64,000 nucleotides of DNA, from the NCBI GenBank assembly GCA_031372565.1, contig JANMLN010000201.1, positions 22,094-86,093 on the forward strand, read 5' to 3'. This document shows, piece by piece, positions 1-17,361 of the stretch; the first letter of the stretch is position 1; every line of letters starts with the position of its first letter. The DNA comes from Gemmatimonadota bacterium (lineage in GTDB: Bacteria; Gemmatimonadota; Gemmatimonadetes; Gemmatimonadales; Gemmatimonadaceae). The notes under the pieces were generated by a model, which searched no databases, had not been told where the DNA came from, and saw only the letters and a program-made list of their open reading frames with translations. Both the position numbers and the translations under genes were made by a program.

Positions 1-659
1 GCGCCGTCGAGGGTGGCGTCACCGTACTGGAGGTTCAGCCGGTACTCGCCGGGACGCAGCGCAATCGTGCCCTTCGTGCCGCGCGCCGCATCCATGCGGG
101 CCGCCTCGGCCTTCCAGTCGGCGAGGTCCATCACGCGGGCGTCCGACGGGACGCTCATGGCATCGTCCACCATGATGCCGCCGTCCTCGGCGCGCGTGTA
201 CTGCGCGAGCGTGCGACGCGTCGCCGCGACTTCATGCTCGTAGCGGATGCTGCCGATGTACGCCGGAGCCAGCACTTCGAACACCATCTTGCCCGAGCGG
301 GGACGGAGACCATCCGGATTGAGCTCGGCAATCCGCAGTTCGCCGCGGGCGGCGCCCTTGGCGTTCACGTACAGGATCGTGCCATTGTCCTGCGCCTGTC
401 CGACGTACCGGAGCTTGGCCGCATCAAAGCGAACCATGCCCTGCAGGCCGCCGATGTCCTCGGACGTGCCCTCGGTGCGCACGTCAACGGCGATCCGGCC
501 GCCGGCCGTCTGGCCCGGTGACGAGATCGCAAGCTTGGTGCTGAGCAGCTGGGTGCGTGCGGCGAGCGGCCCGTCGTTCGGGCTGCAGGCGGCCAGCGCC
601 AGCGTCGCGGCGACCGCACCCGACAGGGCGCGACGCGCGGGGTTCAACTGAATCATCAT
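1..659 (-). CDS. Lipoprotein with cohesin-like domain followed by the start of a dockerin-like motif (3' end runs off the window; absent from the ORF track)
   Basis: Manual translation from ATG 659: MMIQLNPARRALSGAVAATLALAACSPNDG (lipobox LAAC) ...IAVDVRTEGTSEDIGGLQGMVRFDAAKLRYVG...GELRIA...GKMVFEV (cohesin-like) ...LNLQYGDATLDG at the edge; open frame down to base 1. Confidence 0.8.
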   Translation of the reverse strand, partial: MMIQLNPARRALSGAVAATLALAACSPNDGPLAARTQLLSTKLAISSPGQTAGGRIAVDVRTEGTSEDIGGLQGMVRFDAAKLRYVGQAQDNGTILYVNAKGAARGELRIAELNPDGLRPRSGKMVFEVLAPAYIGSIRYEHEVAATRRTLAQYTRAEDGGIMVDDAMSVPSDARVMDLADWKAEAARMDAARGTKGTIALRPGEYRLNLQYGDATLDG

Positions 660-740
660 GGACGGAGAGTCTCGAGTGTGTGAGGGTGACCGGCCAGCGG
701 AACGCGAGGTTCCACTGGCCGGTCGAGGTGTTCGGTTGGT

Positions 741-2519
741 TTACGGGAGCGGGACGTCGGTGACGTCGATCCGCGGCACGAGGTTCAGGAGCGCCGGGGC
801 CGGACCCGAGGCCTGGTTCATCGTCGAGATCTGCGTCACCGTGCCGGCCGCGATGCGGCGGAACTTGAGGCGGAACAGGCCGACGTTGCCCGTGGTGGTG
901 GCACCGGCGAGGCTGAACACCGCGATGCGAACGATGCTCGGCGTGAGCGCCGGATTGTACGTGCGGCTGTCCAGGTCGGCGTTGATCGACGAGGAGGCGA
1001 CGCCGCCCGTGACGGCCACGAGGCGCGCGTTGTCGTACTGCACGTCAACGGTGATCGCGGAGAGCTGATCCGCGCTCATGTTGATGCGACCCTCGTAGAT
1101 GACCGTGTCGACCAAACCGGCGATCCACTGACCGGTGTAGGCGTAACGCGTCGGCGGGGTGACGCAGGTGAGGGTGATGGCCGGAATCGCGGCCGTTCCA
1201 CCGACGGTCAGGCCCGAGTACGTGAACAGGCCAGCGCCCAGCGCCGGCGCAGTGCAGTTGGCCGGAACGCCCGTGAAGCCCGTGATGCGACCAGCCGAGC
1301 CCGAGAGGGTCGGGATGGTGGCCGAGAAGGCACCGGTGGCACCGGTCAGCGCGGCCGGCTGGGCGGCGCCGCCGTTCGGGGTGATGATCACGCCAATGCC
1401 GGGCAGGTTGAAGCCCGCGCCACGCGAGTCGAGAATGGAGCCAGTGACCGTGCCGGTCGGCACGGTGCAGCCGGCGAGCGGGAAGTTGGCGGTCGAGGTC
1501 GCGCCGATCGAGACAACGACGCCCACGGACGTGGCCGAGCAGCCAGCCGGGAGACCAGCGGTCACCGTCGCGGTGCGCGAGCCGACGACCACGCTGTCGA
1601 TCTGGTAGGCGCCAGCCGCATCCGAGATCGCCGAGCGCGAGCCCACCGAGACCGTCACGCCGGCCACAGGGCCGCCGAGCGCGGCCGAGGACACCGTGCC
1701 GCCGACCGAGCCGTACGCGATCACGGCCGAGCGGAGGTCGGCGACGAGCAGGGCACGGATGCGGAAGCGGCTGACGGTCGGGTCGACCGTGAAGCCGACG
1801 GTGCGGCTGGTCGTCGTGCCGGCCGCAGGGATCGTCGGGTACGGCTCCGAGCGGTAGCAGTCCGTCGGGGCGCCGGTCGGCACGGTCGCATTGCAGTCCG
1901 TGTCATTGAAGAAGCTGTGCGGCGCGTTGTCCCAATCGCCATTCGGTGCGATGGCGCCGAAGGACGGCGTCTCGACGATGATCTCGGTGCCGTCGCCCGA
2001 CGTGCTGGAGCCACCGGTGGTTGTGGTGGTGACCGACGAGAACGGGAAGAGCAGCGGACCGGTGGCGCCGGCGGGCGGCGTGGGCCACGTCGGCGTGATG
2101 AGCTCAACACCCGTCAAGCGGTTCGTGATCGACACCTGGAACGACACACAGACCTTGGTGGCGGCACAGCCGACGGTGGTCGAGGTCAGGCCGCTCGTGG
2201 TCAGTTCGACCACATCGCCGGCCAGGATCGAGGTGTTGGGCGTGCCGTCGAGCGAGATGCCACCATTGCCATCGAGGCGGGCGCTGATCGCGCCGCCGTT
2301 CGGGGCGGTGATCTTCACCCGGCCACTGTTGCGGTCAACGTCAAACACGAAGGCGGCACCACGAATCTGTGGCGTCAGGGCCGGGTCGGACGGCAGGACC
2401 GGCGCGAGCTTGGTCGACTGGTCCGCGCTGCACGCGGCCATGCCGACCGTCGTCGCAGCGAGCAGGACCGTCGACAGCGTCCGAGACGGACGAGCAACGA
2501 AACGGGAGAGAAAGGACAT
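741..2519 (-). CDS. Lipoprotein with carboxypeptidase-regulatory-like beta-sandwich repeats and C-terminal cohesin-like domain
   Basis: 592 aa; lipobox MAAC; GSVGGTVSS..GGPVAGVTV and GTVTGSILDS repeats; C-terminal LSAITVDVQYDNARL...VRIAVFS...GNVGLFRLKFR. Confidence 0.8.
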   Translation of the reverse strand: MSFLSRFVARPSRTLSTVLLAATTVGMAACSADQSTKLAPVLPSDPALTPQIRGAAFVFDVDRNSGRVKITAPNGGAISARLDGNGGISLDGTPNTSILAGDVVELTTSGLTSTTVGCAATKVCVSFQVSITNRLTGVELITPTWPTPPAGATGPLLFPFSSVTTTTTGGSSTSGDGTEIIVETPSFGAIAPNGDWDNAPHSFFNDTDCNATVPTGAPTDCYRSEPYPTIPAAGTTTSRTVGFTVDPTVSRFRIRALLVADLRSAVIAYGSVGGTVSSAALGGPVAGVTVSVGSRSAISDAAGAYQIDSVVVGSRTATVTAGLPAGCSATSVGVVVSIGATSTANFPLAGCTVPTGTVTGSILDSRGAGFNLPGIGVIITPNGGAAQPAALTGATGAFSATIPTLSGSAGRITGFTGVPANCTAPALGAGLFTYSGLTVGGTAAIPAITLTCVTPPTRYAYTGQWIAGLVDTVIYEGRINMSADQLSAITVDVQYDNARLVAVTGGVASSSINADLDSRTYNPALTPSIVRIAVFSLAGATTTGNVGLFRLKFRRIAAGTVTQISTMNQASGPAPALLNLVPRIDVTDVPLP

Positions 2520-2656
2520 GCAGGGCCTCCAAAGGGGTAGGCCACGCGCGGAATCGCACGCGGCAGATCAAGCGCCCTATGATCGGCTTTCCATGTCCTG
2601 AGTCAGCGAGCGACGTGTATGGGAACCGTCTGCCTTGTGTGACGGTAACGACGCCG

Positions 2657-2673
2657 TGTCACGAACCGTGACA
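2657..2673. promoter_or_regulatory. Perfect inverted repeat TGTCACG-N3-CGTGACA, candidate operator
   Basis: Located in the 168-bp gap upstream of 741..2519, among further GTCAC/GTGAC/GTTAC words. Confidence 0.3.
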
Positions 2674-2687
2674 TTCACCTCGCGCGT

Positions 2688-4994
2688 CTACGGCAGCGTG
2701 AACGTCCCTTCCTGCACACGAATGCGGGACAGGTAGCTCGCGCCGCCCACCGAGGTCGCGGCCCGCACGTTGGAGACCGTGGTTCTCGTCGTGGTCGTGC
2801 TGCCTGACGCACCGACGGGTCGGAACCGGATGCGGGCCAGCGTGATCGACCCGACGTTGTTCGGCGAACCCGCCGTCGCCCGAATGCTCAACAGCCCCCG
2901 GTTGATGTCGCTTCCCGAAATGTCGGCATTGGTCGACCACTGCCCGAAGTTGAAGGAGACGAACTCCAGCACCGCCGGGTCCCACTGCAGACTCGAGATC
3001 ACCCAGTCGCCCAGCACGGACGTATCGGGCGTGGCGCGCGGCAGTTCCATGCTGATGAGCAACGTCACGAAGCCGCCACCGTCCACGCCAGAGAACCCGT
3101 GCGTGATCTGGAAGGCCGCGCCCGTCCCGCCGCTTCCACCAGTGCCGCTCCCACTCCCACTCCCACTCCCACCGCTTCCTGACCCGCCGGTACCCCCGCT
3201 GCCTGGCGTGCTCACGATCACGATCGACGTCGCCGAGGCGCTCGAGCCGCTCTGCGACACGGTGAGTCTGACGGTGTAGGTGCCCGCCGCCGCGTAGCTC
3301 TTCGATGGGGCGAACCCACTCCCGGTCGTGCCGTCGCCAAACTCCCATGCGTAGCTCGCACCCGCAGTGCTGCCGGCGGCCGAGAAGCTGACCGGCGATC
3401 CGACGGTCGCCGCGTACGGGCCGTTCGCCACCGCCGTCAGTGCGACGCTTCCCGTGCCCGATCCACCGGTACCCGAGCCACCCGTGCCAGTGCCTCCGGT
3501 GCCCGTGCCGCCCGTACCGCCCGTGCCTGTGCCGCCTGTCCCACCACCCGACGACGGTGCGGCAATCACCTTGAACACCGACTCGACCGAGCCGATCGTC
3601 GCGGTGTCCGTGGCGACACCGGCCGAGTCGACAAACAGCACCACCTTCGTCTCGGTCTCGGTGTTCGCGCCGATCGCGGCCCCCGCTGGCACGGTGAACC
3701 GAAGCGTCCCGAGCGACACGGTTCCACCGCGCAGCGTCCCTTCGCTCGGATCGGCCACCCCCGCCAAGAGCACCAGCCCAGAGGCCAGCCCCCCGTTCGC
3801 GCTCGCGAGCAGCTGCCCCCGCACGTACCGCACATACGTCAGCACGGCCGGGTTGTAACGCACCTGCACTTCAATCGCACCGACACTTCGGGTTGGGACG
3901 CGGGTGAGGTCGAGCGAGAGGGCGAGGTCGACCGTGGTCGTGCCCGTGGCCGTGTCGGGCGAGAAGGTGCTGCGCACGACAACCGGTCGCCCCGCCGTCG
4001 TGCTCGTGCGTGTGCAGGCGGCGGCGAACCGCACCGTGTCCTGGCTCAAGGCGGCGACCGTCACGGTGGCTGCGCGCGTGGCCGCGGTGCAGTTGGACGC
4101 GATGTCCTCGAACGCCACCGTGTACGTGCCCGGGAGCAGACGGTCGAACAGGACAGTCCCCGCGACACCGGCGCGCGCCGACACGGTCCGCGAGATGATC
4201 ACCGCCGTGTCCGGTGCCCCGGTGCGGCGCACAACACCGGAGAGCACGAGGCGGAAGCTCGTGTCCACGCTGGCTCCCGTCGGCGTTGCCATCACGACAA
4301 CGCGGCCCCGGCCGGGATCGCGACAGCTGAGTTCGAACCGGACATTCGTGATCGTGGCGATCACGTCATCGCGGACCCGCACCCTGGCGATGCTGTCGGG
4401 CACGCTGCACCACGACGGTACGCCCTGCACCACGACGCGGTACGCGCCATTGGGCAGCGGCGAGATGCGGCGTTGACCGTCGTTCGGGAGCACCACGCTG
4501 GCGCGCACGCTGTCCGTCGCGCTGTCCTTGACGACCAGCGTGTACGTCGCCGGCGCCTGCGCTTCTGCGACGGTGTTCATGCTGAGCTGGATGCCCGGCG
4601 CGGGTGGCATGCGCACGCCCCACGCCGTGGATGGCGCGGAGCGAATGCTGAGTTGGTCGACGCTGACGACGCGGTATCCGTAGTAGTGGTCGGCCGAGAC
4701 CGACTCATCGAGGAAGACCACGGAGTCTCCGGTGCCGGCCACGAGCTGCTCGATGATCGGCTGGAACTCGCCCTGCAGGTCGACGCGACGCAGCAGCGTG
4801 TAGCTCGCGGCACCAGTCACGCGTGGCCAGGTGACCCGCACCATCCGGATGCTCAGCGCCTCTGCGCGCAGACCGTCAGTCGGAGGCAGGCCGCTCGGGC
4901 CAGTGGACGGATCGCCCTGACAGGCGACGAGCGCCGCCAGTCCGGCGACCTGCATCGCGCGTCGGCACATCCGACGCCAGGCGTCAGAAGTCAT
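2688..4994 (-). CDS. Multidomain lipoprotein: FN3-like, two beta-sandwich repeats, cohesin-like, Gly/Thr linker, PKD, Gly/Ser linker, second cohesin-like domain
   Basis: Start moved to ATG 4994, overlapping the receptor's 3' end; lipobox LVAC; VRVTW..V.GA.SY.L.R...Y.YRV (FN3); VGAIEVQVRYNPAVLTYV and LQWDPAVLEFVS (cohesin-like); YAWEFGDG..YAAAGTYTVRLTV (PKD). Confidence 0.85.
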   Translation of the reverse strand: MTSDAWRRMCRRAMQVAGLAALVACQGDPSTGPSGLPPTDGLRAEALSIRMVRVTWPRVTGAASYTLLRRVDLQGEFQPIIEQLVAGTGDSVVFLDESVSADHYYGYRVVSVDQLSIRSAPSTAWGVRMPPAPGIQLSMNTVAEAQAPATYTLVVKDSATDSVRASVVLPNDGQRRISPLPNGAYRVVVQGVPSWCSVPDSIARVRVRDDVIATITNVRFELSCRDPGRGRVVVMATPTGASVDTSFRLVLSGVVRRTGAPDTAVIISRTVSARAGVAGTVLFDRLLPGTYTVAFEDIASNCTAATRAATVTVAALSQDTVRFAAACTRTSTTAGRPVVVRSTFSPDTATGTTTVDLALSLDLTRVPTRSVGAIEVQVRYNPAVLTYVRYVRGQLLASANGGLASGLVLLAGVADPSEGTLRGGTVSLGTLRFTVPAGAAIGANTETETKVVLFVDSAGVATDTATIGSVESVFKVIAAPSSGGGTGGTGTGGTGGTGTGGTGTGGSGTGGSGTGSVALTAVANGPYAATVGSPVSFSAAGSTAGASYAWEFGDGTTGSGFAPSKSYAAAGTYTVRLTVSQSGSSASATSIVIVSTPGSGGTGGSGSGGSGSGSGSGTGGSGGTGAAFQITHGFSGVDGGGFVTLLISMELPRATPDTSVLGDWVISSLQWDPAVLEFVSFNFGQWSTNADISGSDINRGLLSIRATAGSPNNVGSITLARIRFRPVGASGSTTTTRTTVSNVRAATSVGGASYLSRIRVQEGTFTLP
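3473..3550 (-). repeat. Low-complexity coding repeat (GGTGT/GGSGT linker)
   Basis: Encodes GGGTGGTGTGGTGGTGTGGTGTGGSG between the cohesin-like and PKD domains; a similar GS linker lies at about 3125-3205. Confidence 0.7.
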
Positions 4995-7779
4995 ATCCCA
5001 TGCCCATCGAGAAGTTGATGCCTTGGGGGATGCGCCCCGACTCGCTGACGCCACGGTTCACTTCCTGGTAGAACACCACGGGGACGTTCATGAGGTTGCG
5101 CGCACCGAGCGTCCAGTTCATGCGATTGAACCGGCGCGACAGTTTCGCGTCCAGCGAGAACCGCCCCCGTTCGTAGAGGTTGGGGGCCTGGTCCGTGCTG
5201 AGGCGACTCGCCTGCCCGTAGCGCACGATGCGATCGCCGAACCAGTTGCCGAGCACCGTCGCCGAGAAGGTGCGCTGCGCCGACTCGTATCCGAGGCTGG
5301 CATTGACGAGCCACGGGGATTGACCGGCGAGCTCAAGATCCGCGGGGTAGAGTCCCAGGTCGGATGGCATCCAGACCTTCGACTTCACGACCGTCACGTT
5401 GAGCGACGCGTTCAGTCGCTTGAAGCCACCCGGAAGAAAGGTCAGGGTGCGGCGCGCCTCGAACTCGAGGCCGGTGTTGATCGCCAACCGGGCGTTGGCG
5501 AATGACTGGTTGCATCCGCTCGCGCCATTGAACGTCGTCTCGACGATGGGACTGTCGAAGGTCTTGAAGAAGGCGGACACCGACAGGATCTCGCCGGCCG
5601 CCGGATACTTCTCCCATCGCAGGTCGTAGCTGTCGGCGCGCGCCCGGCGCAGCGTGGGCTGCCCGACCTGGTCGCACTCTCCCAGGACCGGCGAGTAGAA
5701 GTCCGGGGAGATCTCACGGGGATCGGGCCGCGACACGGACGAGAACCAGGCCGCCCGCAGATTCGAGGTCTCATCGAGCTTGATGGTGAGATTCATCGAT
5801 CCGAGCAGGTCGGACTTCGCCTTGTTGATGCCCTGGACCGTGGGCAGCAGCGGGTCGAGGGTCAGGTTGGCCAACCATGACTCGTAGCGCGCACCCGCCA
5901 GGACACGCAGGCGTGACCCCAGCGGAATGTCCAGGAGGCCGTACACTGCCTTCACCTTCTCGAAGGCGACATACTGACCCGTGCGCCCGATGATCCGGTC
6001 GAGCTTGAGCACCGGCCCCATCAGCTCTGGCGCAAAGAGCCGGTCCGGTGTAAGCGTGAGCTGCGTCGCGCGCACCCCGGTGTCGGCGGTGCGATAGTAG
6101 AACAGGTACGAATCGAACTGCCGCGTCCGTTCCCGGTAGAGGCCACCCAGCTTGAGCTGAGCGGCAAGGAACTTGCCCCAGCGCAACGGGACGCTCCAGT
6201 CGCTCCCGAACGAGGCCATGCGATCTTCGAGCGTGCGGGCCTGCAGGTTCGGCAGCAGCACGGTGTTCAGTCCGTAGCTGCCGTCAGCCGGATTCAATCC
6301 ATACGGCGCCTGTCGCGTATCCGGCTCGCCGCGCCGTGCCCGCGCCAGCGTGCCCCGCCACTCGAGACGCGAATCGAACAACCATCCGAGGAGATGATCC
6401 CCCGACAGCTGGGATTGCCACAGATCCCGCAACACGTATCGCGTCTGATAGCCGCGGATCGGCGACGGGCTCTTCTCGAGATCCACCCCGTTCGTCACCA
6501 GCAGGTAGTTCTCGGTGCTGCGCGTGTAGGTGTTCTTGAACCCGATCTTCTGCGTGGGACGGAGGCGGTAGCTGATGTTCGCAATCGCGCCGAGATCGAC
6601 CGTCGTCTGTGCGTCCGTACCCGAGAAGGAACGCGTCGGCGCCTCCGTGGTCGACGGATTGAAGACGAACAACCGGTCCGGGGTCAGCGAGCGCTGCAGG
6701 TTGTACGTGCCGGCGACGATCACGCCGAGCGGACCACCGAACAGGGTGGTCTGGTCGCCCACGCTGAGCGACGCCTTGAGATCGGGACCCACCATCTCCG
6801 TTGGGGGGACCCACTTGGCATTCACCGCCTGCGCGAAACGGTCCGGCGCGAGCCCAGTTCCCGGCAACGGACTCGGCAACTCGCGATCGGCGCCGCCGAA
6901 GCCGAAGTATCCTGCCCCTCGCTCCTGCGGGATCGCATGCGTGCCGCCCGTCGCCAACGAGTTGCCGCCGACGCCAAGGCTCATCTGGATGACACGCTCT
7001 TCCGGAAACTCCTTGGTCTTGATCTCGACCGATCCACCCGTGAAGTCTCCGGGCTTGTCGGGCGTGCCGGTCTTGCTCGTGACGATGGACTCGAGCAGAC
7101 TCGCCGGGAAAATGTCGAGCGGCACGATCTTGCGTGTCGGCTCGGGACTCGGCAGTTCAGCGCCGTTGAGGAGGGTGTTGCTGTACCGCTCGGCCAGACC
7201 GCGCACGACGGTGAAACGGCCACCGATGACGGACACGCCCGGCACGCGCGTGATCGCGTCGGCCGCGTTCGAGGACGGAGACTTGGCCATCGCCTCCGCG
7301 CTGATGCCGTCGGAGACGGACGCCGCATTCTTCTGCACGGCCAGCAGGCTCGCATCATTGCGCGTCTGCTTCGGAGCCTCCGCCGTCACGACGGTCGCGG
7401 CCAGCTGCGACGCCGCGGCCGTGAGCGCGAAGTTCGCGATCGCCGTCCGCCCGGGCGCGACCACGATCGAATCCTGTCGCGCCGGGCGGAACCCGATCAA
7501 TCGCACCGTCACGCGATGCCGGCCCGCTCGCACGTTCGCGAGAATGAACCGCCCGTCAAGATCGGTGGCGGCGCCGACGCGGCCGGAGTCGAGCACCACT
7601 TGCGCGTAGGACAGCGGCCGGCCGGTCTCCTGATCGATCACGCGACCCGCAATCTTGCCGGCGCCCGACCCTCCGCTGTCTGCGCGAGCAGGCGCGACGG
7701 TCGGCACTTGTGCCTGCGCCCCGGTGGTCGCCACGCCCACGATGAACGCGAACAGCGCCGTGCCGATGCATCCGCGCAT
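4984..7779 (-). CDS. TonB-dependent outer-membrane receptor with N-terminal carboxypeptidase-regulatory-like domain
   Basis: Start ATG 7779 overlaps upstream stop (TGATG); signal peptide; GKIAGRVID..TG.PL; plug motif VRGLAERYSNTLLNG.ELPSPEP.RKIVPLDIFP; ends MGYDF (C-terminal Phe). Confidence 0.93.
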   Translation of the reverse strand: MRGCIGTALFAFIVGVATTGAQAQVPTVAPARADSGGSGAGKIAGRVIDQETGRPLSYAQVVLDSGRVGAATDLDGRFILANVRAGRHRVTVRLIGFRPARQDSIVVAPGRTAIANFALTAAASQLAATVVTAEAPKQTRNDASLLAVQKNAASVSDGISAEAMAKSPSSNAADAITRVPGVSVIGGRFTVVRGLAERYSNTLLNGAELPSPEPTRKIVPLDIFPASLLESIVTSKTGTPDKPGDFTGGSVEIKTKEFPEERVIQMSLGVGGNSLATGGTHAIPQERGAGYFGFGGADRELPSPLPGTGLAPDRFAQAVNAKWVPPTEMVGPDLKASLSVGDQTTLFGGPLGVIVAGTYNLQRSLTPDRLFVFNPSTTEAPTRSFSGTDAQTTVDLGAIANISYRLRPTQKIGFKNTYTRSTENYLLVTNGVDLEKSPSPIRGYQTRYVLRDLWQSQLSGDHLLGWLFDSRLEWRGTLARARRGEPDTRQAPYGLNPADGSYGLNTVLLPNLQARTLEDRMASFGSDWSVPLRWGKFLAAQLKLGGLYRERTRQFDSYLFYYRTADTGVRATQLTLTPDRLFAPELMGPVLKLDRIIGRTGQYVAFEKVKAVYGLLDIPLGSRLRVLAGARYESWLANLTLDPLLPTVQGINKAKSDLLGSMNLTIKLDETSNLRAAWFSSVSRPDPREISPDFYSPVLGECDQVGQPTLRRARADSYDLRWEKYPAAGEILSVSAFFKTFDSPIVETTFNGASGCNQSFANARLAINTGLEFEARRTLTFLPGGFKRLNASLNVTVVKSKVWMPSDLGLYPADLELAGQSPWLVNASLGYESAQRTFSATVLGNWFGDRIVRYGQASRLSTDQAPNLYERGRFSLDAKLSRRFNRMNWTLGARNLMNVPVVFYQEVNRGVSESGRIPQGINFSMGMGYDF

Positions 7780-8750
7780 CACCGGGCCCCCGCGGGCCAC
7801 TGGCCATGCAGGAAGGTGTCCATGTCCCCGAAGGTGCGTTCCGGATTCATCAGCCACGGCATGTGCGGCTCGGCGTCCAGCGTATCGAGCCGGGACGATG
7901 CCATGGCATCACGCCACTGCCCCAGCATCGTGCTGTAGATCAGGTCGCGCCCACCCGCGAGGATGAGGACGGGGACCGCCGTGGCCTTGACGCGCTCACG
8001 CAGATCCACCTTCACGACCGACCCGAGCAGCCATCGATTGGTGCGCTCGAGCTGACGCAGGTTCATCGGTGAACGTCCGCACACGAGCGGTGCACCGCGA
8101 GCGATCGTGACGGAGTCCCACACGACCAGGGGCGACAGGTAGAAGGACCAGTACTTCCGGCAGAACGCCTGCGGGTCGAGCGAGTCGGCGCGGGCGCGGC
8201 TGTCGGCGTAATACGCGTTCAGTCGCGCACGATCACCGGTGTACGCCGCGAACTGGAATGCCCACGACGACAGCAACAAGTGAGGCGACAGCATCACCAC
8301 GCGACTGACGCGATCTGGATGACTCGCGGCATACGACGCTGCGACGACCGCGCCCCAGTTGTGGCCAACGAGGGCCATCCGCCCGAGTGCCAGCGACGCA
8401 CGAAGCAGCTCCAGATCCGACACGTCGTGCTCGAGTCCGAGTTGCGTGGAGTCCGGCACCCCCGCACCCTCGCCCCGCCCGCGCAAGTCCACCACGATGA
8501 CCGTTCGTCCAACCGCCAACGGGCCGAACGAACGCTCGAGATAGTCGGCGTTGAGCCCAGGGCCACCGGGCACGAGCACGACGGTATCAGGGCCGTTGCC
8601 ATGCACCCGGTACTGCACCGCGAGGCCGGCCGCCACCGACACACGTCCCGCGGAAACGACCGGCGGAAGCGCCGACGGCGACGAGCAGGCGGCGCTTGCC
8701 ATCGCGAGAATGGCAAGCGCGAGCCGAACCAGCGCGAAAGAGTGAGTCAT
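7779..8750 (-). CDS. Alpha/beta-fold hydrolase-like lipoprotein (proline iminopeptidase-like), atypical GHNWG elbow
   Basis: Start ATG 8750 (ATGA overlap); lipobox SAAC; PGGPG, DLRGRG, GHNWG, PVLILAGGRD, HMPW. Confidence 0.85.
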   Translation of the reverse strand: MTHSFALVRLALAILAMASAACSSPSALPPVVSAGRVSVAAGLAVQYRVHGNGPDTVVLVPGGPGLNADYLERSFGPLAVGRTVIVVDLRGRGEGAGVPDSTQLGLEHDVSDLELLRASLALGRMALVGHNWGAVVAASYAASHPDRVSRVVMLSPHLLLSSWAFQFAAYTGDRARLNAYYADSRARADSLDPQAFCRKYWSFYLSPLVVWDSVTIARGAPLVCGRSPMNLRQLERTNRWLLGSVVKVDLRERVKATAVPVLILAGGRDLIYSTMLGQWRDAMASSRLDTLDAEPHMPWLMNPERTFGDMDTFLHGQWPAGAR

Positions 8751-11506
8751 GGATATGCGAGGAGTCCCGCCACGAGCACGGGCAGGATCGACGTGCCGCT
8801 GCCGCCGTCGCCCAACTGCCCGGCGCTGTTCTCGCCCCAGCAGTACAGCGTCCGCGCGGTCGTGAAGCCGCAGGAGTGCGCCCTGCCCGCGACGATGCGC
8901 GTGAACGCGAGCCCGCCATCGACGGACAGCGGCACGCGCGAGCAGGACAGGTCGAAGCCGAAGACGGCGCAGGTGGTCGAGGTCTCCGTGCCCAACTGGA
9001 AGGTGCTGTTGTAGCCCCAGCACAAGCCGCCACCGCTTCCGGTGACCGCGCAGGTATGCAGAAAACTCGAGAGCTCCGCGGCGGTGGCGAGACTCGTCGT
9101 GAGGGGATTGCTGGCGACCACGCGCGGTTGCGACTCACCCACCGCGCTCCCCGTGCCAAGTTGACCGGTCTGATTCCCACCCCAGCAGTACGCTTGATTC
9201 CCGGTCGTGATGCCGCAGGTGTGGGACTCTCCCGCCGTGAGCGAGGTGAATCGAAGGCCGGTCGCGACCTGCGTCGGCACCAGCGCCTGTGTCACGGTCG
9301 GAATCCCGAGACCGCCGAAGACGTTGGATCCCCAGCAGTAGGCCTCGCCGGTGGCCGTCCACGCACAGGAGTGCACACCGCCCGCCGTGATGCCCACGAA
9401 CGCAAGCCCACCCGACGCTTCGGCGGGCCCGAGCGTCCGGATCGTGTTGCCGATGCCAAGCTGTCCCGCGTCGTTGCGCCCCCAGCAGTACGCGCGGCCG
9501 GTGATCGAGAGCGCGCAGTTGTGGTTCGCGCCAGCGGCCACCGCCGTGAAACCCACCGCGCTCGCAATGGGCGTGGGCAGTGGACGATCGAGCGTGTCGA
9601 GCAGACCGAGCTGGCCCTGTGTATTCGCCCCCCAGCAGCGCACGACGCGCGCCGAGGTGAGCCCACACGTGTGCGCATCGGACGCCGCGATGACCTGATA
9701 GGTCCCCATGCCGAGGACCTGCGCGGGCACGCGGCTCTCACTCGCTCCACCGATCCCGAGCTGGCCGCGGTCGTTGCTGCCCCAGCACCAGGCCTCGCCG
9801 ATCTCGGTCAGCGCACAGGTGTGGCGCGCGCCCGCGTCCAGCGAAGACTCGATCGCCGGGCGGCAGGGCACGCCGATGTCACGGGTGACGGCCGCACCGG
9901 CCGGGAGTACGAAGCTCTCCGACGCCGGAATCACGCACCCCGCCGGCACCGACGAGACGCTGAGCACGGACGGGCCCGGCGGGACGCCGGTGAGCGCGTA
10001 TGCACCCGAACTGGCACTGGTCGCCTGCCGCTGAGACGGCTCCAGCGTCACACGCACCCCCACCAGCGCCCCGCGGATCGCCGAGAAGACCTGCCCCGAC
10101 AATGAGGCGAGCGCCGGTGCCACGAGCACCTCGCCCACGGTCCACCCGCTGTACCACGGGGCGTTGGCGCGGCCGGCGTCCGCGGGTTTGACTCCGCCCC
10201 GCCACGTGGTCACATCGAACTCGGCACCGCCGCCGCCCACCACACTCAGCGTGGCCGCGGGCGAGTTGAAGGGCGGTCGCAGGTCGGGGAGCACCACATC
10301 CGTCCCGGCGATCAGCGTTCGGGCAACCTCGACCGGATCGCTGACCACCACGTTCTGCTGATCCGCGCGCGCGAGCCACTCCGACTCGGGATCCGGCGTG
10401 CCGTACGGGCCGCATGTCGAGGGCGGACTCCCCGGCGGGCCCAACGACGTCGCTGCAACGGTCACGACGCCACGTAGCCGCAGCCCGTTGGCGCCGACCT
10501 GCGCGCACGTGCTCGCGCCGTCGACGTCGAGCGCCACGGCGGGACGAAAGAGCAGCACGTCACGGACATCACCGGCCGTTCCGCGCTCCAGGACCAGGGC
10601 GCGAGGAGGCGTCGAGCCGTAGGGATTCGCGCCGTTGCTCTCGAGCACGATCGTCACGTTGGCCACCGACGGCGCAGACCTCGGCGTCGCATCATCACCG
10701 CTGCCGCCCCGTCCACCGTTCCGGCCTTGCATGCCCCCGGCCACCAGTGACGGATCGCCTTGCACGATCAGGTGCTGGGCGTATCCCGTCCAGCCACCGG
10801 TCCATGCAAGTCCGAACTGTGCGTTGGTTGTGAGCGCCAGAAACCGGAGCCCGACGTTGCTCCCGACGATGGTCACGCCGTTGCCGAGCGAACGATGCAC
10901 CTGCACGTACTCGATGCGCGTGGCGGCACCGACGGCAAGCAGTTCGAGGCCACGCACCGCGTACTCGATCCGCGCATAGCGCAGGACCCCGCTCGAGTCG
11001 CGGATGGCGCAGCCACCGTACGCGACCCCTCGATCGGACGATTCACGACACCCGGCCGCGCCAGACCCACGAACGGGCGGGCTCGTCGATGGGCCGTGAT
11101 TGATGACCCCGTTCCCCGCGATGGTCAGGCCGTTCCAGCAGCCCGCCGTCGGTGCAGGGTCGCTGCAGGTGAACACGATCGGCTCGAGGAACGTCCCGTT
11201 CGCGTTCAGGCGTGACTCGCGCGGCACGATGAGCTCAGCACCCGAGTCGGCCAGTACCACCGCACCCGCGCCGATGGTCAGCGAGCTTCCGGCGGACAAG
11301 ATCGTCGTGCCGCTGAGCCGATGCGTCTGGTGTCCGGCCCATCGCACGTCACCGCGCAACACGGTCACGGCACGCGATGCCGACACGCCTTTGGCGGGGA
11401 CGCGCGCCGTCGCGGCCGGCACGGCGCCGGTACCGATCAATAGTGGAACGAGCAGGAGGATGGCGAGCATCGCTGAGTCCAACGGGATGGCGCGCGTCGC
11501 GCGCAC
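8747..11506 (-). CDS. Secreted protein: beta-helix-like N-terminal region, carboxypeptidase-regulatory-like domain and RCC1-type beta-propeller repeats
   Basis: 919 aa; hydrophobic N-terminus; LNANGT..EPIVFT, DSSGVLRYARIEYA; seven repeats of HTC...G.AYCWG.N..GQLG. Confidence 0.85.
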   Translation of the reverse strand: MRATRAIPLDSAMLAILLLVPLLIGTGAVPAATARVPAKGVSASRAVTVLRGDVRWAGHQTHRLSGTTILSAGSSLTIGAGAVVLADSGAELIVPRESRLNANGTFLEPIVFTCSDPAPTAGCWNGLTIAGNGVINHGPSTSPPVRGSGAAGCRESSDRGVAYGGCAIRDSSGVLRYARIEYAVRGLELLAVGAATRIEYVQVHRSLGNGVTIVGSNVGLRFLALTTNAQFGLAWTGGWTGYAQHLIVQGDPSLVAGGMQGRNGGRGGSGDDATPRSAPSVANVTIVLESNGANPYGSTPPRALVLERGTAGDVRDVLLFRPAVALDVDGASTCAQVGANGLRLRGVVTVAATSLGPPGSPPSTCGPYGTPDPESEWLARADQQNVVVSDPVEVARTLIAGTDVVLPDLRPPFNSPAATLSVVGGGGAEFDVTTWRGGVKPADAGRANAPWYSGWTVGEVLVAPALASLSGQVFSAIRGALVGVRVTLEPSQRQATSASSGAYALTGVPPGPSVLSVSSVPAGCVIPASESFVLPAGAAVTRDIGVPCRPAIESSLDAGARHTCALTEIGEAWCWGSNDRGQLGIGGASESRVPAQVLGMGTYQVIAASDAHTCGLTSARVVRCWGANTQGQLGLLDTLDRPLPTPIASAVGFTAVAAGANHNCALSITGRAYCWGRNDAGQLGIGNTIRTLGPAEASGGLAFVGITAGGVHSCAWTATGEAYCWGSNVFGGLGIPTVTQALVPTQVATGLRFTSLTAGESHTCGITTGNQAYCWGGNQTGQLGTGSAVGESQPRVVASNPLTTSLATAAELSSFLHTCAVTGSGGGLCWGYNSTFQLGTETSTTCAVFGFDLSCSRVPLSVDGGLAFTRIVAGRAHSCGFTTARTLYCWGENSAGQLGDGGSGTSILPVLVAGLLAYP

Positions 11507-11662: not shown

Positions 11663-12154
11663 TCAATCCGTCAGCGGCACGATCTGCACGTCCACCGCGC
11701 CATCGAGCACGGTCAGTCTCGCCACGCTCGGCACGAGCTGAAACCGACGCGGGCCTGCCGCCCCGGGATTCACCACCAACCGGCCGTCGGCGCGCGTGAC
11801 CAGCTGCTGGTGCGTGTGCCCGTACACCAGCACGGCCTCCGGATAGGCCGCCAGCAAATTCGCGGGGGTGGGCGCACCGAGTTCGTGCCCGTGACTCACG
11901 TGAATGGCCACATCCCCGACGCGGTGCACGAACGAGGCAACCAGCGGCGGGTACGGCTCATCCGTGTTGCCGAAAACGGCGAGCACCGGTGCGATGGTTT
12001 CCAGTTCCGCCAACACGATCGGCTCGCCGACATCTCCGGCGTGCAGGATGAGCGACACCCCTGCCAGCGCCTCGTGCACCGACGGCCGCACCAGATTGTG
12101 GGTGTCGGAGATGAGCCCGATCACGATGGGCCCCGTCTGCGCTCGCCTGCTCAC
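11663..12154 (-). CDS. Metallophosphoesterase, YfcE/MJ0936 family
   Basis: ISDTH, HAGD, V.GNTD, SHGH, GHTH, NPG motifs; GTG start overlapping the ubiX stop. Confidence 0.9.
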   Translation of the reverse strand: MSRRAQTGPIVIGLISDTHNLVRPSVHEALAGVSLILHAGDVGEPIVLAELETIAPVLAVFGNTDEPYPPLVASFVHRVGDVAIHVSHGHELGAPTPANLLAAYPEAVLVYGHTHQQLVTRADGRLVVNPGAAGPRRFQLVPSVARLTVLDGAVDVQIVPLTD

Positions 12155-12762
12155 GCGTCCGTTGGGGCGTCGCCCTGCCAGCGCCGACCGACCGTGTGGT
12201 CGAGGTCGAGTTGGTCGAGCACGCGAGCCACCACGAAGTCGACGAGGTCGCTGATGCCCTGCGGCTTGTGGTAGAAGCCCGGCGCGGCCGGCATGACCAC
12301 GGCGCCTGCCTGCGTCACGCGCAGCAGGTTCTCGAGGTGGATCTGCGAGAACGGCGTCTCGCGCGGGACGAGGATCAGCTTGCGTCGTTCCTTGAGCACC
12401 ACGTCGGCCGCACGCTCCACCAATGAGCGCGAGGTCCCCGCCGCGATCGACGCCACCGTGCCCATCGAGCACGGGCAGATCACCATGCCGCGTGTGCGCA
12501 CGGAGCCCGAGGCCGGCAGCGCGCCACGATCGCCGTCGTCGAACACGCGCACGTGCGCGTCCCAGGCGCTCGCGCCAACCGACGCGCGCAGCGCCGCCTG
12601 ATCGGCGATGCCCACCTCGGTGGAGAGCAGGCGATAACCGTGCGACGAGATGATCAGCCACGTCGGCTGCGCCAACTCCGCCAGCGCGCGCACCAGCCGC
12701 ACCGCGTACGGCGCCCCACTCGCGCCGGTGATCGCGACAACAATCGGACGCGCCGCACTCAT
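12151..12762 (-). CDS. ubiX: Flavin prenyltransferase
   Basis: VAITGASGA, PASGS, PCSMGT, RAADVVLKERR.LILVPRETP, PGFYHKP. Confidence 0.95.
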   Translation of the reverse strand: MSAARPIVVAITGASGAPYAVRLVRALAELAQPTWLIISSHGYRLLSTEVGIADQAALRASVGASAWDAHVRVFDDGDRGALPASGSVRTRGMVICPCSMGTVASIAAGTSRSLVERAADVVLKERRKLILVPRETPFSQIHLENLLRVTQAGAVVMPAAPGFYHKPQGISDLVDFVVARVLDQLDLDHTVGRRWQGDAPTDA

Positions 12763-13706
12763 GCGCTCACCGCCGCGATCAGCCGGCCGGCCAGTACGCA
12801 CGCGAAGAAGAGCAAGCTCATCACGCCGTTCATGGTGAAGAACGCCGCGTCCAGCTTGGAGAGGTCATCGGCCTTCACGAGCCCGTGCTCGTACCACAGG
12901 ATGCTCGCAGCCACCGCGACCCCCGCCCACCACGCAACGCCCGCCGTCGCGCCGGCCATGGGCAGCGCCCATCCGACCAACGCGAACGCCACGACCGTGA
13001 GCGTGTGCAGCGCGCGCGCGACCACGATGGCGCGCGGCACCCCGATCGCCGACGGGATCGAGAACAGCCCCTGCGACCGATCGAACTCGGCGTCGGGCAG
13101 CGCATAGAGCACATCGAAGCCCGCGACCCAACTGGCCACCGCAACGGCGAGCAGCGGCAGCAGCCACCACGGCGTCGGCCACGCCCCCGTCACCGCGAGC
13201 CATCCGCCGGCTGGCGCGATCGACAGCCCGACGCCGAGCCACAGGTGCGCGTAGCGCGTGAACCGCTTGGCGTAGCTGTATCCCAGCACCCACGCCAGCG
13301 CGATCGGCGACAATGCGAGACAGAGCGGATTGAGCCGCCAGGCACTGACAATGAACAGCGCGCCTGCGAGCACCACCGAGGCGCGGGCCGCACCCACGCC
13401 AATCACGCCGCGCGGGATCTCGCGCTGCGCGGTGCGCGGATTGAGGGCGTCAAACCGTCGATCGACCAGCCGATTGAAGGCCATCGCCGCGAACCGTGCG
13501 CTCGTGAACGCCAGCACGGCCCAGCCCACCTGCGACACCGTGACCGCATGGGTCCAGCTCGCAAGGGTCACCCCCACGAGTGCAAACGGCAGCGCGAACA
13601 CCGTGTGCGGCAGCTTGACGAAGCTCGCCCATGTCGAGACAACGCCGGGCCCGGCGAAGGTCTGCCCTTCACGCGGTCCGCCGACGCTCGCCTGCGCGCC
13701 GCTCAT
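12759..13706 (-). CDS. ubiA: UbiA-family polyprenyltransferase (MqnP-like)
   Basis: KLPHTVFALPFA, AMAFNRLVDRRFDALNPRT..REIP.G, GFDVLYALPD; ATGA overlap with ubiD. Confidence 0.92.
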   Translation of the reverse strand: MSGAQASVGGPREGQTFAGPGVVSTWASFVKLPHTVFALPFALVGVTLASWTHAVTVSQVGWAVLAFTSARFAAMAFNRLVDRRFDALNPRTAQREIPRGVIGVGAARASVVLAGALFIVSAWRLNPLCLALSPIALAWVLGYSYAKRFTRYAHLWLGVGLSIAPAGGWLAVTGAWPTPWWLLPLLAVAVASWVAGFDVLYALPDAEFDRSQGLFSIPSAIGVPRAIVVARALHTLTVVAFALVGWALPMAGATAGVAWWAGVAVAASILWYEHGLVKADDLSKLDAAFFTMNGVMSLLFFACVLAGRLIAAVSA

Positions 13707-15184
13707 CGCGTTCCCAATCCGAGCGAGGGCCAGATCGCGTCGACCTTCGCTCTGGTGGTGGCATCCATCTCGATCACCTTGGGCCAGTTGCGCGTGAACC
13801 CTTCCTCGGGCCACTTCCGCGTGGCATCGAGCCCCATCTTGCTGCCATAGGTGAAGCCGCGACTCGCATGATCGAGCACGTCCACCGGTCCCATCGTGAA
13901 GCGGGCATCGCGCTCGGGATCGAGGTTGTTGAGCGCGACCCACCACGCTTCCTGTGGATTGCGGACATTGACCCAGTCGTCCACGATCACGAGCACCTTC
14001 GCCAGCGACATCAGCCCCTGTCCCCACAGCGCGTTCATCACCTTGAACGCCTGCCCGGGATACTGCTTGCGGATGCTCACGAACACGAGGTTGTGGAAGA
14101 TGCCCTCGGCCGGCATGTGGTAGTCGACGATCTCGGGCGTCGTCAGCTTGAGCAACGGCAGGAAGATCCGCTCGGTGGCATGACCCAGGTAGAAATCTTC
14201 CATGGGCGGCCGACCGACGATCGTCGTCGCGTACACGGGGTGCTTGCGCATCGTGACCGCCGTGATGTGCACGCGCGGATACAAGTCCGCCTCGGAGTAG
14301 AACCCCGTGTGATCGCCGAACGGCCCTTCGGTCACCAGCGGCTCCCGCGGATCGATGTACCCCTCGAGCACGAACTCCGCCTCGGCCGGCACCTCCAGGT
14401 CGCAGGTCAGCGCCTTGACGAGCTTGACCGGCTTCGACCGGAGGAAACCGGCGAAGATGAACTCATCGACGGCCGGTGGCAGCGGCGCACTCCCCGAGAA
14501 GACGCTCGCCGGATCGGCCCCGATCGCAATGCACACCGGCATCATCTGCCCGGTCTCTGCCATGTGGCGCCAGTGCTCGGCGCCCGACTTGTGCCGCTGC
14601 CAATGCATCGCGACATGGCGCGGCCCCATCTGCTGTACGCGATACATCCCCACGTTGCGGATGCCCCGCACCGGGTCCTTGCTGATCACCATCGGCAGCG
14701 TGATGTACGGTCCGCCGTCATCGGGCCAGCAGGTGATGATCGGCAGCCGGTCGAGGTTGATCTCGTCGCCGCGCCACACGATTTCCTGGCACGGCGCCCC
14801 GCTTCCGACCATCCGTGGCGGAAACTTCGAGACCTCGAGGAGACGCGGCAACAGCGACAGCTTGCCCATCAATCCTTCGGGCACCTTGAGGTCGATGAGC
14901 TTGGTGATGCGCGCACCCACCTCGTCGAGCTCCCGGACCCCCAGTGACAGCGACATGCGCGTCATGCTGCCGAACAGGTTGATGGCCACCGGATACGCCG
15001 AGCGGGTGCCGTCGCGGAGTACGGGGTGCTCGAACAGCAGCGCGGGCCCACCACCGGGCCGCTTCATGACACGGTCCGCGATCTCGCACAGTTCGAGATG
15101 GATCGAGACCGGCTCCTTGATGCGGACCAGCTCGCCGGCCTGCTCAATGGCGGCGATGAACTCCTGCAGCGTGTCGAGGGTCAT
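13703..15184 (-). CDS. ubiD: UbiD-family decarboxylase (menaquinone biosynthesis decarboxylase, MqnL-like)
   Basis: CWPDDGGPYITLP, RNVGMYR, EGPFGDHTGFY, GRPPMED, GSKMGLDATRK. Confidence 0.95.
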   Translation of the reverse strand: MTLDTLQEFIAAIEQAGELVRIKEPVSIHLELCEIADRVMKRPGGGPALLFEHPVLRDGTRSAYPVAINLFGSMTRMSLSLGVRELDEVGARITKLIDLKVPEGLMGKLSLLPRLLEVSKFPPRMVGSGAPCQEIVWRGDEINLDRLPIITCWPDDGGPYITLPMVISKDPVRGIRNVGMYRVQQMGPRHVAMHWQRHKSGAEHWRHMAETGQMMPVCIAIGADPASVFSGSAPLPPAVDEFIFAGFLRSKPVKLVKALTCDLEVPAEAEFVLEGYIDPREPLVTEGPFGDHTGFYSEADLYPRVHITAVTMRKHPVYATTIVGRPPMEDFYLGHATERIFLPLLKLTTPEIVDYHMPAEGIFHNLVFVSIRKQYPGQAFKVMNALWGQGLMSLAKVLVIVDDWVNVRNPQEAWWVALNNLDPERDARFTMGPVDVLDHASRGFTYGSKMGLDATRKWPEEGFTRNWPKVIEMDATTRAKVDAIWPSLGLGTR

Positions 15185-15957
15185 GGTGCGCGATCAACGC
15201 CCGGCTCGGCCGGTCGTTCCCCGACATGGATGGCCGCAACGCCGAGCGTCAGCGACTCCCAGCGCACGCGTGCGAACCCGGCCTGCGTGAGCCGGGCAGC
15301 CAGCGCCTCCTCGACGGGAAAGTGCTGTACGGAGCGCGGCAAGTACGCGTACGCCGTCCGGTGGCCGCTGATCAATCCGCCGATGAAGGGCAGGAGGTGG
15401 TGGAAGTACGCATGATACCCCGCGCGCACGATGGCTGCGCGCGGCGTCGAGAACTCGAGGATCACGAACCGCGCCCCCGGCTTGAGTACACGAAAGACCT
15501 CCACGAGTCCCGCATCGAGGTTGGCCACGTTCCGGATGCCGAAGGCGACAATGGCCCCCTCGACGCTCGCTGCCGGCAGTGGCAGCGCCAGCGCGTCCGC
15601 CACCACTGGTGCAATGCGGCCACCCCCCTTCCCGGCCCCGGCTCGGAGCATCGGTTCGGCAAAGTCGGCGCCGATCACCCGGCCGCGAAACCCCGCCGTC
15701 GCGGCGAGCTGCGCCCCCACGTCGAGGGTCCCCGCGCACAGGTCGAGCCAGGCACCGTCCGGCGCGCGCTCCACGCCCAACTGCGCGATGGCGCGCTCAC
15801 GCCAGCGCCGATCGATGTTGAAGCTCAGCAGGTGGTTGAGCAGGTCGTAGCGCGGCGCGATCTCGGAGAAGATCCGCTGCACATACTCGCGCTTTCCGCC
15901 GTCGCCGCGAGCGGCCGACTCAACCTCGCGCGCGTCGATGTCCGTGTGTACCGTCAC
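15181..15957 (-). CDS. ubiE: Demethylmenaquinone/ubiquinone methyltransferase (UbiE/MenG); start approximate
   Basis: F..IAPRYDLLNHLLSF.ID..WR, LDLCAGT.D, FGIRNV, E..RVLKPG....ILEFS.P, AY.YLP.SV..FP. Confidence 0.92.
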   Translation of the reverse strand: MTVHTDIDAREVESAARGDGGKREYVQRIFSEIAPRYDLLNHLLSFNIDRRWRERAIAQLGVERAPDGAWLDLCAGTLDVGAQLAATAGFRGRVIGADFAEPMLRAGAGKGGGRIAPVVADALALPLPAASVEGAIVAFGIRNVANLDAGLVEVFRVLKPGARFVILEFSTPRAAIVRAGYHAYFHHLLPFIGGLISGHRTAYAYLPRSVQHFPVEEALAARLTQAGFARVRWESLTLGVAAIHVGERPAEPGVDRAP

Positions 15958-16081
15958 CGTGGGAAAGCTCGCGGCCTGCGAGGGAGGCAGCAAGCGTCGC
16001 GCGCCCCTCGCCTGCCCCCTTGCAATCCGGTAGCTTCTCCATGCGCGCGCAGGGGGCCCCGCCCCGGCTGCGTGCGCTCCG

Positions 16082-16687
16082 ATGCCCACTACGCGAATCG
16101 AGCTCGAGAACCTCCCAGACGCGGACGTCGTCGCGCTCGCGCAGCAGGGTCGCGAGGACGCGTTCCGCGAGATCATCCGGCGCTATGAGCGCCCGGTGTT
16201 CTCACTTGTGTACCGCATGGTCCGGGATCGCGAGGTCGCCGAAGACCTCGCGCAGGACGCCTTCATCCGCGTCCTCAACAACCTTGACAAGTACCGGTCG
16301 GAGTTCAAGCTGTCGAGCTGGCTGTTCAAGATCGCCAACAATGTGGCGATCGATCATCTGCGCAAGCGACAGCTCGACACCATCTCGATCCACGGCTCGC
16401 CGAACGCCGCGACCGCGAGCGAGATCGAGGCGACCACCATCGATATCGACTCGGGCGAAGAGAACGCCCTCGACGAGATGGAGGCCAAGGAGCTCGGCAG
16501 CGCCATCGAGCGCGCCATCGCACAGCTCCGCCCCGAGTACCGCGCCTGCATCATGCTGCGGCACGTCGAAGGGCGCTCCTACGAAGAAATCGCCACGACG
16601 CTCGACCTCCCGCTCGGGACGGTCAAGACCTACATCCACCGCGCGCGCCACGAACTGCGCGAAGCCCTCGAACATCTGCGGGAATGA
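16082..16687 (+). CDS. ECF RNA polymerase sigma factor (RpoE/SigW-like)
   Basis: AEDLAQDAF, SWLFKIANN..IDHLRK, EGRSYEEIA..L..P.GTVKT.IHRAR. Confidence 0.95.
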   Translation: MPTTRIELENLPDADVVALAQQGREDAFREIIRRYERPVFSLVYRMVRDREVAEDLAQDAFIRVLNNLDKYRSEFKLSSWLFKIANNVAIDHLRKRQLDTISIHGSPNAATASEIEATTIDIDSGEENALDEMEAKELGSAIERAIAQLRPEYRACIMLRHVEGRSYEEIATTLDLPLGTVKTYIHRARHELREALEHLRE

Positions 16688-16767
16688 ACCGGCGCGCCCC
16701 GGCGCGCAACGCCTTGCCCGGTGAAACTCCCGCCTCGCCCCAGCCGTACGGAACCACGGAGACCTGC

Positions 16768-17358: not shown

Positions 17359-17361
17359 GTC

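Follow-up and report, generated by a model that had tools for sequence, protein, structure and literature searches.

The 64-kb stretch of Gemmatimonadota DNA analysed here (the window; contig JANMLN010000201.1 of assembly GCA_031372565.1) opens with a locus in which the gene for a TonB-dependent receptor (TBDR) is followed by genes for lipoproteins that carry cohesin modules. Cohesin-dockerin docking is understood almost solely from Gram-positive cellulosomes; cohesin and dockerin modules are also widespread outside cellulosomes, where the copies have no assigned role. The question raised by the locus is what these modules are doing beside an outer-membrane transporter. A TBDR and three lipoproteins with four cohesins (two in g3, one in g2, one in g1) form a conserved operon core in Gemmatimonadota; in g1 the cohesin is joined by a divergent dockerin with two repeats and by a pectate-lyase-like β-helix of family PF28492.

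The window has a G+C content of about 69%, and open reading frames (ORFs) in six frames with their translations were the basis of the gene calls. Positions 3-11506 are filled by six long ORFs, all on the minus strand, in agreement with the six co-oriented genes proposed for this region by an earlier sequence-only reading. They are listed in order of transcription (aa, amino acids):

g6: 8747-11506, minus strand, 919-aa secreted protein with a β-helix, a CarboxypepD_reg-like domain and seven RCC1 repeats
g5: 7779-8750, minus strand, probable lipoprotein, proline-iminopeptidase-like α/β hydrolase
g4: 4984-7779, minus strand, TBDR of 931 aa
g3: 2688-4994, minus strand, lipoprotein with two cohesins
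g2: 741-2519, minus strand, lipoprotein with one cohesin
g1: 3-659, minus strand, first 219 aa of a 782-aa lipoprotein whose gene is truncated by the window edge

The start codon of g5 overlaps the stop of g6 (shared ATGA, a 4-nucleotide (nt) overlap), and that of g4 overlaps the stop of g5 (shared TGATG, 1-nt overlap). The g3 start is ambiguous (4994, 4970 or 4955, the last being the database model); ATG 4994 gives an 11-nt overlap with g4 and ATG 4970 a 13-nt spacer. The proposed overlap of the four 5'-most genes is therefore certain at the first two junctions and hinges at g4/g3 on the choice of start codon. The tight translational coupling of the TBDR gene and g3 suggests that g3 is the direct partner of the receptor. 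Intergenic gaps of 168 nt and 81 nt separate g3 from g2 and g2 from g1, respectively.

The cohesin segments, with their scores when each was scanned alone against the Pfam Cohesin family (PF00963, gathering cut-off 24.1 bits), are as follows:

Cohesin D: 3570-4007, minus strand, first cohesin of g3, 29.6 bits
Cohesin C: 2691-3131, minus strand, C-terminal cohesin of g3, 19.1 bits
Cohesin B: 744-1169, minus strand, C-terminal cohesin of g2, no Pfam match alone
Cohesin A: 200-560, minus strand, cohesin of g1, 16.4 bits

Scanned singly, only D clears the cut-off, with A and C under it and B unmatched; in a related locus (L004) the g1 ortholog scores 26.1 bits, over the cut-off, and the g2 ortholog, corresponding to segment B, 15.1 bits. 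Comparison by hhalign of profiles from family alignments, made for each segment from its relatives, links D to C (99.1%, E 5.9e-19), to B (98.9%, E 2.2e-17) and to A (96.7%). Against the sequences of solved structures in the PDB, profile D finds the ScaC cohesin 5lxv_A best (E 0.0026), its six matches also including unrelated chains (RNase G/E, fibronectin and two lipocalins); the two matches of profile B are the ScaB cohesin chains 5nrm_A and 5nrk_A (E 0.02); all 10 matches of profile A are cohesin modules (best E 0.012); and profile C has no match. Segment C, having the least sequence support, was chosen for folding, and the fold was examined on this segment only. Its AlphaFold2 (AF2) model has a predicted local distance difference test score (pLDDT) of 88.4 and a predicted template modelling (TM) score (pTM) of 0.82. 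A Foldseek search of the PDB with this model gave 78 matches at E≤0.001; the 35 that were listed all belong to cohesins, whether type I, type II or non-cellulosomal, the best being 4ums (E 6.7e-8, TM 0.72; listed range 0.55-0.72), at sequence identities to solved cohesins of 9-18%. The fold of the segment is the flattened β-sandwich (jelly-roll) of cohesins and superposes on solved examples.

The four segments are genuine cohesins. Exactly four are present, mutually homologous and located in the three lipoproteins encoded after the receptor, as had been proposed, and at the proposed positions; with D over the Pfam cut-off and the listed fold matches of C all cohesins, their identity is that of cohesins rather than of generic sandwiches. 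Hidden Markov models of the four families found no further copy in the six-frame translation of the window. The sequence motif by which the segments had been recognized fared less evenly: its strict form occurs in two of them (at 3884 and 455) and is absent from the other two, and a relaxed core occurs in all four, with one additional, unrelated match at 49323. The mean number of matches in 50 shuffled windows was 0.0 for the strict motif and 0.04 for the relaxed core.

The dockerin module belongs to g1, most of which lies past the window edge. Its full-length product, P0017 (782 aa), is encoded on the same 86-kb contig and is 100% identical over the 219 window residues (protein database); from N- to C-terminus it has a signal peptide with lipobox, cohesin A, a linker of about 60 residues, a two-repeat dockerin-like module and a Beta_helix_4 domain (PF28492). 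The features concerned are:

First 8 residues of dockerin-like repeat 1 of g1: 3-26, minus strand, the rest past the window edge
Dockerin-like module of P0017: aa 212 to about 305
Beta_helix_4 domain of P0017: aa about 330-770, precomputed PF28492 assignment

Within the window no dockerin was found by Pfam or by a strict regular expression over six frames, because only the 8 residues at nt 26-3 lie inside it; a Pfam scan (E≤1e-5) of the 82 other window ORFs of ≥140 aa likewise gave no dockerin or cohesin, only housekeeping genes. On P0017 the Pfam Dockerin_1 stretch begins at residue 212, with 11.3 bits for the whole protein, and among 19 homologs four match Dockerin_1 at E≤10 (best 0.0026). 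Inspected by eye, each P0017 repeat consists of a 12-residue loop and then a helix, the loop having Asp, Glu, Asn or Thr at its positions 1, 3, 5, 9 and 12; the 19 homologs keep both repeats, with an invariant loop Asp at positions 1 and 12, and many have an insertion before the second repeat.

A profile of the module built from these 19 homologs (A4) extends its relationships. Of its 13 matches among solved structures, 10 are dockerin chains by name, two are chains named 'serine protease' whose alignments span dockerin-type repeats, and one is unrelated. Against 1.84 billion representative proteins A4 has 231 matches at E≤1e-3 and 135 at E≤1e-10. Most of the 150 matches listed have the g1 architecture (module at about residues 190-330 of a 700-830 aa protein). 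The dockerin carrier comprises at least 135 clusters at 50% identity. Nine listed matches have four or more stretches; eight of these are Pfam Dockerin_1 proteins (E 5e-37 to 1e-85, with 3-10 stretches each) and the ninth is a HYR-repeat protein. For the eight, A4 gives E values of 8e-17 to 1.5e-8, which are summed over many repeats. The dockerin presupposed by the sequence-only reading is thus present in the locus, as two repeats in the full-length g1 product whose profile reaches Dockerin_1 proteins, and the module, judged by its sequence, either belongs to the dockerin family as a divergent member or is closely related to it. Complex prediction for the dockerin-like module of L004 with cohesins D, C and B of that locus, g1's own cohesin being excluded, gave 0.02 against a mark of 0.32, the fold of the partner being uncertain; this score speaks neither for nor against docking.

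To follow conservation of the locus, one genome per species was scanned with a 3-sequence g3 alignment, and 51 loci were returned; 27 of them match g3 over several domains, and 24 PKD-only loci were set aside. All but one of the 27 carry a Gemmatimonad- label of some kind, the other (L011) coming from a bin labelled Alphaproteobacteria. In neighbour counts by tblastn with the six window proteins, all 25 loci that extend at least 2.2 kb upstream of g3 have a TBDR gene immediately before it, the TBDR orthologs being 37-43% identical; the remaining two loci have no sequence on that side. A g2 homolog follows g3 in 20 of the 21 loci with ≥1.5 kb downstream (the exception, L019, has 1.5 kb), and a g1 homolog comes after g2 in all 17 loci with ≥0.9 kb beyond the first g2. 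These 17 loci hold 20 g1-type ORFs of the same architecture, two each in L012, L017 and L018; by strict containment the β-helix region lies within the same ORF in 17 of the 20, the remaining three being affected by a contig end or frame break (L011) or running past the ORF end (L037 and the second L017 copy).

Upstream of the receptor the picture differs. Of the 21 loci that extend far enough upstream, 6 have the g5 hydrolase gene directly before the TBDR gene, a full g6 ortholog is found upstream only in L003 and L010, and the upstream regions of L004, L012, L016 and L018 are mutually unrelated; the conserved unit therefore begins at the receptor, not at g6. Conservation of gene order, as originally proposed, holds in Gemmatimonadota for the unit TBDR-g3-g2-g1 and fails for the six-gene set, in which g6 and g5 are variable neighbours. 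Two more genes extend the cassette past g1 in relatives: one for a conserved 447-aa lipoprotein, next after g1 in 13 loci, and one for a 565-aa protein that contains an HExxH motif, which follows on the same strand in L004 (where the 447-aa and 565-aa genes occupy 16745-19817) and five more loci. The 565-aa protein has no Pfam match at E≤1.

Some relatives contain additional copies of cassette genes. A second g1-type gene, encoding cohesin, dockerin and β-helix, follows the 447-aa lipoprotein gene in L012 (18403-20868), L017 (18066-20495) and L018 (18206-20410), and extra g2-like genes are found in L004 and L018; these suggest local duplication of cassette parts. L011 (contig CAVZRU010000019.1) has the full cassette, with Gemmatimonadota-like identities and a seemingly frame-shifted TBDR gene, and its label of 'uncultured Alphaproteobacteria' could reflect mis-binning or transfer.

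The three lipoproteins each open, as read by eye, with a signal peptide and lipobox cysteine (LVAC in g3, MAAC in g2 and LAAC in g1). From its N-terminus g3 consists of an FN3-like region, two β-sandwich domains, cohesin D, a Gly-rich linker, a PKD domain, a second Gly-rich linker and cohesin C; scanned whole it gives 41.3 bits for Cohesin in two stretches and E 6.4e-15 for PKD. The parts between its cohesins are:

PKD domain of g3: 3216-3434, minus strand, Pfam PKD_4 55.4 bits and PKD 48.8 bits
Gly/Thr/Ser-rich linkers of g3 (GGT/GGS-type runs) flanking PKD: 3135-3215 and 3435-3569, minus strand

Extra PKD domains replace the linkers in four of five aligned relatives. In g2 an N-terminal domain of no recognized family (aa about 35-265) precedes one or more CarboxypepD_reg-like domains (Pfam CarboxypepD_reg, E 1.5e-6) and cohesin B; the N-terminal domain matches no Pfam family, and its best family-atlas score, 0.85, is a lead only. 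A metagenomic protein, P0002 (1057 aa), joins a g3-like protein, in a natural fusion, to the C-terminal half of a g2-like protein, made up of CarboxypepD_reg and a third cohesin-like end. This fusion indicates that g3 and g2 are functionally linked.

The β-helix of g1 has a counterpart in the window, the N-terminus of g6 (aa about 22-458) being homologous to the C-terminal domain of g1-type proteins. The g6 protein is divided as follows:

Pectate-lyase-like β-helix of g6 (Beta_helix_4 type): aa about 30-460, minus strand, N-terminal, from the family atlas and AF2
CarboxypepD_reg-like domain of g6: aa 468-520
Seven RCC1 repeats of g6: aa about 555-900, from Pfam

In the family atlas all 30 matches of the g6 β-helix are PF28492 (score 0.98), and its AF2 model is a regular strand ladder (pLDDT 76) whose PDB look-alikes are right-handed β-helices only (best E 6.7e-3), among them the P22 tailspike, PL6 alginate lyases, GH87 and the AlgE epimerase; the solved look-alikes are nearly all glycan-active. 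Both the PF28492 assignment and the right-handed parallel β-helix fold are therefore in evidence. A cluster of acidic residues on successive rungs is kept in the g1-type copies and lost in the g6-type copies of the window, L003 and L010; it is a possible active or metal site in the g1-type proteins, and g6, which has Pfam matches to RCC1 and WD40_RLD, looks like a degenerate β-helix paralog fused to an RCC1 propeller. The P0017 β-helix, used as query, found 444 proteins at E≤1e-3 among 8000 candidates scored; the relatives listed come from Gemmatimonadota, Rheinheimera and other Gammaproteobacteria, with one Phycisphaerae label, and five bear the tail of a type IX secretion system (T9SS; PF18962).

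The receptor, g4 (931 aa), consists of a signal peptide, a CarboxypepD_reg domain (63.3 bits), a plug (38.6 bits; Plug cut-off 23.9) and a barrel, and so has the plug and C-terminal β-barrel that define a TBDR. Its nearest NCBIfam model is TonB-Xanth-Caul (TIGR01782, 211 bits, under the cut-off of 310), the barrel region aligning with positions 517-848 of that model, and a sequence search of the PDB at 1e-3 gave no match. The neighbouring g5 matches Pfam Abhydrolase_1 (E 1.2e-16) and scores 64.9 bits against TIGR01250, under the cut-off of 167.65.

From these parts, the chances are about even that the locus encodes an outer-membrane cohesin-dockerin capture or processing complex that feeds the TBDR. 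In such a complex the lipoproteins would sit at the outer membrane beside the receptor, and the g1 dockerin would bind at least one cohesin of the locus in a Ca-dependent manner; the β-helix module would thereby be held above the receptor on a scaffold of immunoglobulin (Ig)-like spacers, namely the FN3-like, PKD and CarboxypepD_reg-like domains. The β-helix would be the likely part that binds or cleaves substrate, and fragments of the polymer would be passed to the TBDR for TonB-powered import. In function the whole would amount to a Sus-like 'utilisome', with cohesin-dockerin modules in the role of SusD-type partners. A fuller version, in which Ca-dependent assembly takes place on the diderm outer membrane, cohesin lipoproteins replace SusD and a docked β-helix enzyme of a new class (PF28492) cleaves an environmental polymer above the import pore, is put forward tentatively and is on the doubtful side.

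A number of observations weigh against the capture complex. Each cassette has one dockerin to four cohesins, and neither the window nor the sequence within 10 kb in the 27 loci yielded a further dockerin-like module; all three proteins have a lipid anchor of their own, so that attachment needs no docking, and surface exposure of lipoproteins in Gemmatimonadota is not established here. The isolated 106-aa module of P0017 scores 20.1 bits against Dockerin_1 (PF00404; E 7.2e-4, two stretches), under the cut-off of 22.9, and the best match of A4 to a solved structure (E 0.049) is not significant. No catalytic, carbohydrate-binding module (CBM), SusD or glycoside hydrolase (GH) family was recognized in the six proteins by Pfam and NCBIfam. 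The β-helix fold search gave nothing at E≤0.001, so no CAZy-type family can be assigned, and the 120 listed relatives of the P0017 β-helix, all of which carry PF28492, are all named 'hypothetical protein'. A promoter and terminator scan gave no promoter-like sites and no terminator-like sites between genes; the single terminator-like site lies in the TBDR gene, against a chance expectation of 3.5.

The alternative that survives best is that the lipoproteins act independently, the cohesin folds being ligand-binding or spacer sandwiches and the dockerin-like module an EF-hand-type Ca-binding linker, with no complex formed. The four-to-one count, the lipobox on each protein, the dockerin under its Pfam cut-off and the three of four cohesins under theirs when scanned alone would all fit such an arrangement. 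It is nevertheless unlikely, since cohesin and dockerin occur together in the cassette in all 17 loci that reach g1, both dockerin repeats are kept in 19 homologs together with loop Asp 1 and 12, and the module profile reaches true dockerins.

If the capture complex is accepted, the substrate can be considered separately. The β-helix and the TonB-Xanth-Caul-like barrel point to a glycan, and the prolyl-aminopeptidase-like hydrolase and the downstream HExxH protein would fit a protein or glycoprotein. A protein-utilization system, of the same architecture and importing protein or peptide rather than glycan, is improbable: the proline-iminopeptidase-like hydrolase shows translational coupling to the TBDR in the window and lies upstream of it in six other loci, but it is found in only 6 of 21; the conserved 565-aa HExxH protein downstream in L004 and five loci is without a Pfam match at E≤1; and although L012 and L018 have M1-type and aminopeptidase genes nearby, the look-alikes of the β-helix are almost all glycan-active.

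Least probable is a surface structure, such as an adhesin, a matrix or an S-layer-like coat in which g1 polymerizes head to tail and the TBDR is an Oar-like exporter or anchor, for although g1 has cohesin and dockerin on one chain, the TBDR has an N-terminal CarboxypepD_reg domain (shared by the Myxococcus Oar protein), Ig-like spacer domains are numerous and no catabolic enzyme is recognized, the barrel is closest to the nutrient-uptake subfamily TonB-Xanth-Caul, the conserved acidic cluster of g1-type proteins would resemble an active or metal site, and hydrolase genes recur beside the cassette.

Several known systems resemble the proposed capture complex in part, and two direct assignments were rejected. 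The locus is not a cellulosome: the six proteins have no GH or CBM match (Pfam, NCBIfam), and the sole dockerin carrier seen in the cassette is the β-helix lipoprotein g1. It is also not a Sus-like polysaccharide utilization locus (PUL), as g4 scores 34.4 bits against the SusC/RagA model TIGR04056 (cut-off 368) and none of the six proteins has a SusD match at E≤1; the same Pfam search found no glycoside hydrolase, which for these six proteins bears out the earlier remark that neither is visible. The cellulosome of Clostridia (type I/II cohesins, Dockerin_1) shares the cohesin fold (TM of about 0.7 to ScaB, CipA and CipC cohesins), two loop-helix dockerin repeats, several cohesins per 'scaffold' and an adaptor-like protein bearing both modules; in contrast, the present system has a diderm host, lipoprotein carriers, a TBDR operon and one dockerin per locus, with no GH, CBM or S-layer homology (SLH) module seen. 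Bacteroidota SusC/SusD 'utilisomes' similarly have a TBDR with a CarboxypepD_reg-type N-terminal domain that is co-transcribed with, and closely coupled to, downstream Ig-like lipoproteins, and the presumed logic of a surface capture complex is alike, but here there is no SusD, no CAZyme is recognized and the phylum is different. TbpA/TbpB-type receptors are bipartite, with a TBDR gene beside that of a partner lipoprotein; this gene arrangement is alike, whereas there is no sequence relation and the lipoproteins here are three, with cohesin and dockerin modules.

Non-cellulosomal cohesins are closer in kind: those of Archaeoglobus fulgidus (2xdh) and Clostridium perfringens NagJ (2jh2) are among the fold matches of segment C, and such cohesin/dockerin proteins (2xdh, 2jh2/2w1n) are alike in having roles outside cellulosomes that are non-cellulolytic or unassigned, yet none was found described as a conserved TBDR-linked lipoprotein cassette. 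Peer et al. in 2009 reportedly surveyed non-cellulosomal cohesin/dockerin proteins. Within PF28492 the C-terminal domain of g1 and the N-terminal domain of g6 belong to the same family, whereas relatives in Rheinheimera or with a T9SS tail have other lengths and other listed families. A full-text literature search, with subscription journals mostly beyond its reach, gave no description of a TBDR-cohesin-dockerin locus of this kind; the accessible portions of the literature that combines dockerin, TonB-dependent and cohesin treat rumen and gut PULs and cellulosomes as separate systems. The combination builds on known kinds, namely non-cellulosomal cohesin-dockerin modules and TBDR-lipoprotein loci.

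The significance of the cassette is that a small, conserved group of genes connects four cohesins and one dockerin with a defined machine, the TonB-dependent transporter, and this suggests that cellulosome-style docking has been reused at a Gram-negative cell surface. It offers a testable function, namely which of the cohesins the dockerin would bind and whether their complex is located on the receptor. If the capture complex is real, it would provide the first functional handle on PF28492 β-helix proteins, a handle on nutrient acquisition in Gemmatimonadota, a common but little-studied soil phylum, and an alternative to SusD for transporter-associated surface complexes.

Elsewhere in the window, a ubiquinone/menaquinone-type cluster on the minus strand (12154-16182), encoding a UbiX-like flavoprotein, UbiD and UbiE, lies directly upstream of the locus, next to a divergent gene for an extracytoplasmic function (ECF) sigma factor (16034-16684, plus strand). 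At the other end are four large paralogous Ser/Thr protein kinase genes on the minus strand (51127-53889, 54541-57237, 58084-60894 and 61386-63998), three of which encode PD40 β-propeller repeats. Small PIN-domain genes (53844-54326 and 57227-57667) are interleaved with the kinase genes, and another PIN gene is located at 45839-46306.

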